Positions 21,001-23,051 of a stretch of 23,051 nucleotides of DNA are shown here, in pieces. The stretch comes from a virus (Duplodnaviria; Heunggongvirae; Uroviricota; Caudoviricetes), in IMG/VR virus record IMGVR_UViG_2703718769_000008, positions 1-23,051 of that record. One strand, written 5' to 3'. Position 1 is the first letter of the stretch, and each line of letters opens with the position of its first letter. The position numbers are program-made.

Positions 21001-23051
21001 CGGGCATTACTGCGTATCAGGTAAGAGTGTGAATAACTGTATTTAATAACAAAATCTTAAAAGTTTAGTGAGGTACTGTGTAGTTGTCTAAATGTTGTGT
21101 ATTTTAGGTATTGCAGGATATCCCTGTAACGAAGTTTGCGTAACAGCATTTTGCCCTACGAGTTTGCCAGCCTTCCCCTGTGGCTGGCTTTTTTTATGTC
21201 TGTAACATTCAGTAGTTCAGTAAACGCGCTGGTGGTGGTGAATACCGGTCTTTCAGCTTGTTGGCTTTTTCGACAAGAGTTATTGGTGTGTCACGTTAAC
21301 CGGAATAGGGAAAAAGACATGCTGAAACAGCCGTATATGACTGAAACCGCCAGAGTGTTATTTAATGAATTAAGTGTTAACGACCCGGCGACAGTCGGGG
21401 AGATGGCGCAGAGTACTTACCTTTCACGCGAACGCTGCCAGTTAATACTGACCCAGCTCGTTATGTCGGGTAGTTAAAGCCAGCCGGAAGTCTTTACCTG
21501 TTCTGTGGATATCGCCTGGCATCTGATATTGAAATCGTGATGCGTAAACGTTTTAATGTGCTGAACCATATCATATGGGCGAAGCCGTTCAGACGTTGGA
21601 GCGCATGCTGTTGTTGCTCACTGGTATTACGAACGGTTTGCTCACGGGGATGTACACATATTAATTGTTGATGTTAATATTTCGTCATGTTATTAATACA
21701 AAATTGTAACGCATCATTCAAAGTATTATAATTATCATTTGTTGCATTTATTATGCCAACATTCCTTGTTGGTCTTCCTTCTGTTGAATACTCTATCCAG
21801 AATGAGCCGGTGTATTTTGACATTCTATATGTTGCGAATTCTTTTGCATTAATTGGTGGTTTGGTGCCGTTGAGATCCATTATATAACCACTTTCTTGAA
21901 TTGTCTTGGAAAGGCAATTGATTATTTCATTTGTCGATATTTCACTGTCGATTTGAGGATGATCCACAATTAGCCCCATGCAGAGGATGCTTGAAATTAT
22001 TATAAAAATATTTTTTATCATGATGTCTGTTTTTGTGATCTTTTAGATAGAATGTCTGCTGTGGAGATATGTATACCTCTTGTGCTCATTTATTTCAATA
22101 GATAGTTGAGCACTCATTGTGCTAATGGAAGAAGTTTTTTAATAGGGAGTATCATCAAAATCACACAATAGTAATTAATGTTGCTATTAGATAAAGAAGT
22201 ATCGCTAACTTTGATTTTGTTGAATTTGTTTTTAATAAAAGTTAGTATGGATTATATAGCAGGCATATGCATGCTGTTTTTAAAGAAACTTATTGCCCCT
22301 TTAGCCCTAATGGTCAGAGCGAGCGGTTAATAACCGCCAGGTCGCCGGTTCAAACATGGCAGGGGCACGAAGCGCTGTTAGCTCAGTTGGACAGAGCAAT
22401 TGCCTTCTAAGCAATCGGTCACTGGTTCGAATCCAGTATGGCGCACCATGCGGTCATCGTATAATGGCTATTACCTCAGCCTTCCAAGCTGATGATGCGG
22501 GTTCGATTCCCGCTGGCCGCTCCATAGAGGATTATGGGGACAGTATAATGAGCATTTTCCTGCGTTACCTTTCATCGGTAAAAATAAGTATACAACAACT
22601 ATTTATGCTGGCATTAGCTATGATAGTTATTGGTTTTCTCGGGATGTGTTTATTTGTTTACTATATTCTTATCGATAACTGATATTTTTGATATTAAACT
22701 AGAGTGGTACAAGCAGAAATTTAAACTCGCCATGAAACTGGGGTGTTAATAAAGCGATTATCATTAAGCTCGGGTTGTGAAAAATGTTAAAAGCATCACA
22801 TTTCATTATGTTGGGTACTGGATAATAACCCGTCGTTTTGTTAAAAATAATCTCGCATGGTGAATCCCCCTGTGCGGAGGGGCAATCAGCAAGTAGGTAT
22901 ATGTGATAATCGCGGATTCAGGTGCTGATACTGAATTCACCGGGAGGCACCCGGCACCATGTAGTTATGCAATGCAAATGTTCACACAAGCAAATCCCCT
23001 CTCCGGAGGGGATTTTTTTATGCAAAAAAAAGCCCGAGTGGGTTCGGGCAA

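Follow-up and report, generated by a model that had tools for sequence, protein, structure and literature searches.

Lambdoid phages carry and exchange Shiga toxin genes and other conversion genes in the interval that separates the antiterminator gene Q from the lysis genes. In phage lambda, the gene bor lies antisense to the Q-dependent late transcript, is expressed in the lysogen and experiences interference during lytic growth. A second arrangement is represented by tyrT-tpr and thrU-tyrU-glyT-thrT-tufB of Escherichia coli, in which a protein gene trails tRNA genes on the same strand. Here, we analyzed a stretch of 23,051 nucleotides (nt) from an E. coli lambdoid/P22-like mosaic phage (IMG/VR record IMGVR_UViG_2703718769_000008, positions 1 to 23,051), hereafter called the window, in which a reverse-oriented gene for a protein of 115 amino acids (aa) and a 44-aa open reading frame (ORF44) flank a cluster of phage tRNA genes. 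By alignment to the Shiga toxin (Stx) 2a phage WGPS8, the stx2AB genes of that phage sit between the last tRNA and an STnc100-like element, which is the position of ORF44 in the window. This agrees with the proposal of a preliminary description of this DNA that the slot following the tRNAs is the one used by Stx phages for their toxin genes. The features at the center of this study are the following.

21604-22296, no strand assigned: AT-rich replacement cassette of 693 bp and 32% GC, consisting of the reverse gene and its upstream region
21674-22021, minus strand: gene for the 115-aa precursor of a predicted small secreted protein of an uncatalogued family (from the ORF, homologues, dN/dS and AlphaFold)
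21965-22021, minus strand: predicted signal-peptide codons 1-19 (MIKNIFIIISSILCMGLIV), with likely cleavage after G16 to V19
22070-22098, minus strand: candidate sigma-70 promoter of the reverse gene, TTGAAA-17 nt-TATACA, about 42 nt before the ATG, in a block conserved in the upstream regions of 6 loci
22295-22367, plus strand: decayed ileZ-type tRNA relic (Rfam tRNA, 28.3 bits against a gathering score of 29)
22372-22448, plus strand: tRNA-Arg (TCT) of the argN/argO type (ARAGORN, Rfam; 90-95% identity to the tRNA-Arg of Stx phages)
22450-22524, plus strand: tRNA-Gly (TCC) (ARAGORN, Rfam)
22548-22682, plus strand: ORF44, a probable tail-anchored single-pass membrane peptide (predicted) in the stxAB slot (ORF open in relatives, pN/pS)

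On balance, we favor the view that the reverse gene and ORF44 are two unrelated pieces of prophage cargo (morons) that hitched to the phage tRNA cluster, between Q with its pR'-tR' region and the nanS-p and lysis genes. The preliminary description had treated the region as a single AT-rich accessory island. Its genes and tRNAs were all found where it had placed them, and the AT richness (29-33% GC in a window of 45% GC) as well as the classification as accessory cargo, located in the Q-to-lysis interval of a lambdoid late region, were confirmed. The idea of one island had to be given up, however, since the two genes occur independently in related loci and each is tied to a different tRNA. The 115-aa gene is found without ORF44 at the related loci L003, L014, L016-L019, L024 and L029-L033, and ORF44 is found without the 115-aa gene at L006-L011 and L021-L023. 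Their co-occurrence in the window is best read as shared docking on the tRNA cluster and not as a functional pair. Both genes are patchily distributed; among 5426 complete E. coli genomes, 28 carry the 115-aa gene and 24 the ORF44 block (81-100% identity). Both also deviate in base composition (29-32% GC compared to 45%), with 31.6% GC in the coding sequence of the reverse gene, 29.3% in the intergenic region 22022-22294 and 31.9% in ORF44, while the whole window has 44.7%. These are the features of morons, as had been suggested for the reverse gene. The locus is ordinary phage accessory cargo and does not represent a novel type of system.

The 115-aa ORF represents a genuine gene under purifying selection, with dN/dS values of 0.18-0.6 across eight alleles and dS of up to 1.8. 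Like ORF44, it is kept open in diverged relatives; neither is thus a chance ORF, and the conservation in related phages on which the preliminary description had made its claims depend was found for both. The annotated length of the protein differs between databases: 115 aa in GenBank (P0001), and in RefSeq 97 aa from an internal ATG in a near-identical genome and 113 aa in another allele. Among 5.8 billion proteins, only 10 relatives were found, all from Escherichia and with identities down to 61%. When a profile was run against 1.84 billion cluster representatives, nine further small proteins of 25-43% identity appeared, so that the homologues span 25-99% identity. Two large repetitive matches from the profile search (P0020 and P0024) were judged to be repeat or compositional artefacts. 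Nine IMG/VR viral contigs carry the gene, and in a narrower alignment scan of species-representative genomes it was found only in Escherichia ruysiae. Members of the family gave nothing above noise in Pfam, PHROGs, NCBIfam and PADLOC. The family is uncatalogued but narrow, being restricted to Escherichia, and has a confident structural model.

Its N-terminus carries K3 followed by an uncharged stretch of 15 residues (I5-V19), with C-M-G at positions 14-16. A lysine- or arginine-rich n-region and a hydrophobic core of 12-16 residues are present in every full-length homologue down to 25% identity (n = 12), and distant members possess classical AXA-type signal-peptidase sites (AYA/D, SLA/A, CLA/A and INA/V; the slash marks the cut). 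The sequence thus displays what is expected of a signal peptidase I substrate, namely a basic n-region, a core of 10-16 residues and small residues at positions -3 and -1. The signal-like N-terminus that the preliminary description had recognized in the reverse gene is hence a predicted secretory signal conserved in all homologues. We also considered that the product might be a lipoprotein and rejected this: the lipobox is poor (S-I-L-C, with leucine at -1), and the cysteine is missing in P0008, P0019 and other members. Invariant residues of the family are C36 and C108 as well as Y46, E61, G72, W75, I76 and L105. Because both the signal-like N-terminus and the two cysteines are conserved, export followed by formation of a disulfide bond appears likely. 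For the same reason, we favor the long start at 22021 over the internal ATG chosen by RefSeq.

Structure prediction gave a confident model of the mature part only. A first AlphaFold run with an alignment of 8 sequences that included the signal peptide was discarded (predicted local distance difference test, pLDDT, of 53); the mature part with an alignment of 13 sequences reached a pLDDT of 91 and a predicted template modelling score (pTM) of 0.82. The predicted fold is beta-alpha-beta4-alpha, a two-layer sandwich. A profile search with the family against the sequences of the PDB gave no match, and structure comparison of the mature model yielded no informative one (Foldseek E 0.05 or worse). 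Homology searches and structure prediction, which the preliminary description had named as checks, thus provided homologues down to 25% identity and a confident model of the 115-aa protein, but neither a catalogued family nor an informative structure. In the reading we favor, a Sec-type signal peptide comprising residues 1 to about 16-19 would be removed from the precursor, and an acidic mature protein of roughly 96-99 aa (isoelectric point 4.9) would fold in the periplasm, where Cys36 in helix 1 and Cys108 in the C-terminal helix may form a disulfide. Our best guess for its function is that of an envelope binding or masking protein which changes the periplasm or the cell surface of the lysogen; exclusion and protection are examples of what this could serve.

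The genomic placement of the gene follows a strict pattern. The cassette takes the place of the 3' two-thirds of a phage methylase gene, whose remnant forms its left edge. Collinear relatives without the 115-aa gene (L006-L010) retain an intact methylase gene and have about 1 kb in place of the cassette, comprising the 3' part of that gene and a spacer, after which the tRNAs follow. Without exception, in the 20 loci whose upstream flank measured 300 bp or more (the window, L001-L005, L012, L014, L016, L017, L019, L024-L027 and L029-L033), the gene is divergent to a phage tRNA gene at a distance of 190-351 bp, and the partner tRNA has the anticodon CAT or TCT or is a tRNA-Gly with CCC or TCC. 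This set includes a 44%-identical homologue beside a different Q gene and a plasmid copy flanked by insertion sequences (IS). The latter resides on the 87-kb plasmid p2 of E. coli cM8a (L004, 3942-4829), where an unannotated homologue of 45% identity adjoins tRNA(CAT) and tRNA-Arg between fragments of IS3, IS66 and IS91; here the gene-tRNA module has moved outside a prophage. In E. coli GCA_049815365.1 (L014, 4483-6555), two phage tRNA clusters bracket a DUF3927 gene and a homologue of the 115-aa gene within one late region, a layout that would fit cargo exchange by recombination between tRNA repeats.

Transcription of the gene would probably start at its own promoter in the intergenic region of 29% GC, divergent from the tRNAs. 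Since the Q-dependent late transcript runs in the opposite direction through the gene, the likeliest scenario is expression in the lysogen and, once lytic growth begins, silencing by convergent late transcription. Another informative locus is found in E. coli MFDS1022581 (L002, 2826-5054), which harbors a prophage remnant of roughly 2.5 kb between yccA and a tRNA-Ser gene. The remnant has no Q and lysis genes and, apart from fragments of an integrase gene and of lom, contains only an intact homologue of the 115-aa gene, tRNA-Arg, tRNA-Gly and an intact ORF44. This suggests that the module was retained after the loss of all phage functions, which fits a role on the side of the host rather than in lytic growth.

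Taken together, a function of the 115-aa protein as lysogenic-conversion factor, as put forward in the preliminary description, is plausible from the anatomy of the locus. Several observations count against our overall reading of the gene and its product. The cleavage site of the window allele (LCMG/LIV) is not a textbook AXA site, no Shine-Dalgarno (SD) sequence precedes the ATG in any allele, RefSeq chose the internal start in some genomes, and a consensus scan called neither a promoter nor a terminator for the gene. The atypical cleavage site would also be compatible with a protein that remains anchored by an uncleaved signal anchor, and the tight, universal link of the gene to phage tRNA genes could mean that it serves the phage itself during infection. 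We regard both variants of this alternative, in which the protein is not a lysogenic-conversion factor, as quite unlikely, as the hydrophobic core is only 15 residues long and classical signal-peptidase sites are present in distant members. Moreover, the gene is encoded on the strand opposite to the late operon, most relatives of the phage do without it, and it is intact in the remnant that lacks phage functions. A more far-reaching proposal would be that a disulfide-locked periplasmic family travels among lambdoid prophages as a fixed module of gene, AT-rich divergent promoter and tRNA and constitutes a new lysogenic-conversion factor, acting for instance in receptor masking, superinfection exclusion or host interaction, and that ORF44 is in addition a new small tRNA-operon membrane protein which, from the Stx slot, modulates a host membrane complex. 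As a joint statement, we consider this doubtful. The reading of two independent cargo genes remains the one we prefer for the locus as a whole.

For the second of these cargo genes, ORF44, the question is whether it is translated at all. It starts 23 nt 3' of tRNA-Gly (TCC) in the window and 22-25 nt 3' of it in all loci. Database searches returned 8 predicted proteins as homologues, all from Escherichia and some of them labelled "putative membrane protein". Eleven related loci possess an intact copy; in each of them the frame is open and the stop lies at the same position, being either TGA or TAA, and 10 of the 11 copies are free of indels. The remaining allele, from E. coli M3 (L011, 2523-2657), has a 2-nt deletion and a 5-nt tandem duplication 40 nt apart, by which the frame is restored; in this strain, a tolA-like gene follows ORF44 in the stx slot. 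At a further locus (L023), IS1 has removed the 5' end of the ORF. Variable sites are distributed over the three codon positions as 12/8/17, and replacements are conservative (I/V, L/F, M/T/V). Pooled over five lineages, pN/pS is 0.39 in frame compared to 0.63 and 0.93 off frame. We conclude that ORF44 is probably coding.

The encoded peptide would have 17 N-terminal residues including R6 and K12, an uncharged span of 25 residues (L18-I42) and a terminal Asp-Asn; its grand average of hydropathy (GRAVY) is 1.57, and the best 19-residue Kyte-Doolittle window scores 2.74. It is thus plausibly a single-pass membrane peptide, consistent with the single-span peptide of the preliminary description. 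That description had also listed an SD sequence, and GGGGA is indeed present 7 nt before the ATG; it is weak, however, and not conserved in relatives. Most likely, ORF44 is translated into a peptide of 5.1 kDa with a basic amphipathic N-terminus in the cytoplasm, the 25-residue span and a two-residue tail in the periplasm, a topology (N-in/C-out) suggested by the positive-inside rule. The ORF always follows tRNA-Gly (TCC) at 22-25 nt, and for this reason co-transcription with the tRNAs, by Q-dependent read-through or from a tRNA promoter, and release of the mRNA by tRNA processing appear to be the likeliest mode of expression.

The case for translation has its weak points. RefSeq annotates ORF44 in none of the genomes carrying it. 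The start is ATG, GTG or, in a third variant, TTG with an ATG in the codon before it, and the SD-like motifs (GGGGA and, 16 nt before the ATG, GAGGA) are lost in several relatives. Single pairwise pN/pS values reach 0.8 in a small sample, and random substitution leaves the frame open in 46-88% of trials per lineage (about half). These observations, together with near-invariant nucleotide stretches such as CTATTTATGCTGGCATTAGC that take in third codon positions, would also be expected if the 135-nt block were untranslated and conserved as RNA or DNA, be it as a tRNA 3' trailer or processing signal, as a regulatory RNA of the late leader or as a recombination linker between the tRNAs and STnc100. 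We consider this alternative possible, yet clearly less probable than a coding function. Third codon positions are the most variable, pN/pS has its lowest value in frame, and the stop stays in place as either TGA or TAA. No uncompensated indels occur within the ORF, whereas the sequence just 5' and 3' of it contains many and diverges faster. An RNA structure over the block was considered and dismissed, as there is no convincing covariation (covariation term of -1.7 kcal/mol, single-sequence z of -1.84, neither significant) and no Rfam family at E <= 1.

If ORF44 is translated, the preliminary description offered a membrane toxin or holin-like modulator as its function. The peptide is indeed short and very hydrophobic with one span, is encoded within the late transcript a few kb ahead of the holin gene, and occupies an interval that harbors hokD or DUF3927 peptides in other prophages. 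A membrane-damaging toxin resembling those of type I systems, or a lysis modulator of the holin/antiholin type, is nevertheless very unlikely in our estimation. At E <= 1, no Hok/Gef, holin or DUF3927 profile of Pfam matched ORF44, there was no match to a PHROG holin or in PADLOC, and Rfam revealed no Sok or other antisense RNA family over 22500-22700. In the sole promoter-like site on the minus strand of the ORF (22614-22587), the -10 box lacks conservation among relatives, and we accordingly discarded the site as an antisense promoter. Furthermore, ORF44 has a single span compared to two or three in lambdoid holins, and the phage has its own class II holin gene downstream. In the remnant L002, ORF44 is intact without a lysis cassette; since both cargo genes are intact there in the absence of Q and lysis genes, a purely lysis-related role is disfavored. 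A probable cargo gene encoding a putative membrane peptide in the toxin slot is what we retain for ORF44.

In the tRNA block to which both genes are attached, only two tRNAs are functional as judged by ARAGORN and the gathering score of Rfam. The element at 22295-22367 neither reaches the gathering score of Rfam nor receives a call from ARAGORN. It aligns to the intact tRNA(CAT) of L003, L006, L011, L014 and L020, and its anticodon loop and T-stem are mutated, which identifies it as a decayed ileZ. A literature search on the tRNA cluster and on the RefSeq protein accessions returned nothing relevant. The neighborhood contains the following additional features.

19432-19815: Q antiterminator (PF06530, E 7e-52)
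19953-20771, plus strand: CPBP/Rce1-like intramembrane glutamic protease, 272 aa (PF02517, E 2e-18; phrog_13291)
21036-21204, plus strand: pR'/tR' leader homologue (probable), 86% identity to the segment directly after Q in the Stx2a phage WGPS8
21319-21477, plus strand: 52-aa phrog_331 ORF; 65 aa in relatives, where it is annotated as "TrmB family transcriptional regulator" or hypothetical
21475-21609, plus strand: remnant of a phage DNA methyltransferase gene, 135 nt; a partial pseudogene of RefSeq in the near-identical genome
22825-23024, plus strand: full-length prophage small RNA (sRNA) STnc100 (RF02076), 132 bits against a gathering score of 47
23025-23051, minus strand: 3' end (terminator hairpin) of an anti-sRNA of the AsxR/AgvB type, convergent to STnc100 and cut by the window end

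The gene order is Q, CPBP protease, pR'/tR' homologue, methylase remnant, reverse gene, tRNAs, ORF44 and STnc100, followed by the nanS-p esterase and holin genes. The right-hand 2 kb of the window are 99.9% identical to a prophage of E. coli OkiPb01678, whose annotation continues beyond the window end with a SASA esterase of the nanS-p type, DUF1378, DUF826, a class II holin and a lysozyme. STnc100 is located between ORF44 and the nanS-p esterase gene, and the same element lies 3' of stx2B in WGPS8. A 2026 preprint links STnc100 to PasD sRNAs (10.64898/2026.05.13.724894). For the AsxR/AgvB-type end, the scores are 36.5 and 29.9 bits; truncation of the element by the window end keeps them under the gathering scores. 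On the left side of the cassette, the alignment places 21460-21603 on the central part of the intact 1-kb methylase gene of L006, L009 and L014.

The segment 21036-21204 is probably the pR'/tR' leader. The region of phage Nil3 that matches this part of the window carries an annotated tR' terminator, and a stem-loop with a T run at about 21160-21205, read by eye and not called by the consensus scan, ends the leader stretch. A sub-threshold RprA-like match (E 0.96) covers 21082-21198. We presume that the leader may correspond to a short late-leader RNA of the StxS type. With its location 5' of the late promoter region, where it separates Q from the pR'-like leader, the inserted CPBP protease gene (37% GC) occupies an unusual position; it is another moron-like cargo gene. 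Positions 1-9400 of the window contain P22-like DNA-transfer and tailspike genes, O-antigen glucosylation genes (gtrABC or yfdH-type) and then a minus-strand ORF of integrase size. A contiguous series of tail, gtr, int and early genes and Q exists only in the circular form of the phage; the window is therefore in phage and not in prophage order, or stems from an integration other than that of the OkiPb01678 relative.

Overall, our results show two defined candidates that can be added to the cargo which E. coli prophages may express. Phage tRNA genes serve as common docking points for another predicted secreted protein family and for a probable small membrane peptide, which supports the view of the tRNA cluster as a recombination anchor for the swapping of cargo. 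Neither protein is catalogued in Pfam, PHROGs, NCBIfam or PADLOC, and ORF44 has no RefSeq annotation. The gain lies in a better annotation and in a confident structural model for the 115-aa family, while no concept is changed.

The comparison with known systems illustrates how far these likenesses extend. The predicted fold of the 115-aa protein resembles KA1/TBP-like and helix-grip alpha+beta sandwiches, Flpp3 (DUF3568) and the N-domain of BamC, at identities of 5-16% and within the Foldseek range given above; since the fold is very common and no motifs are shared, we do not take this resemblance as evidence of homology or function. Peptides of the DUF3927 family (PF13064) are similar to ORF44 in being single-span peptides, here of 50-60 aa, whose genes also lie in the Q-to-holin interval, in some cases next to a member of the 115-aa family. 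However, ORF44 and its homologues P0014-P0018 do not match PF13064 at E <= 1 and show 14-17% identity in the alignment, whereas the genuine DUF3927 neighbors from L003 and L014 score 49.7 and 25.6 bits.

With lambda Bor, the 115-aa protein shares its small size, its predicted export to the envelope and the AT-rich, patchily distributed gene on the strand opposite to the late operon; by analogy, the gene is expected to be dispensable and to have a promoter of its own that is active in the lysogen. It differs from Bor and Iss in lacking a Bor profile match (Pfam, E <= 1) and the lipobox L-[AS]-[GA]-C, and from Bor in its beta-alpha-beta4-alpha fold with a conserved cysteine pair and in a gene that lies beside tRNAs and not after Rz. 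ORF44, in turn, has the slot (after ileZ-argN-argO), the orientation and the Q-dependent late transcript of the stxAB operon, but encodes a hydrophobic peptide of 44 aa instead of an AB5 toxin, without Stx homology and without any sign of a virulence role. As a membrane peptide, it is unrelated to Tpr or EF-Tu; nevertheless, it follows the tRNAs directly and on the same strand as do tpr and tufB in their operons, and by analogy tRNA processing would free its mRNA.

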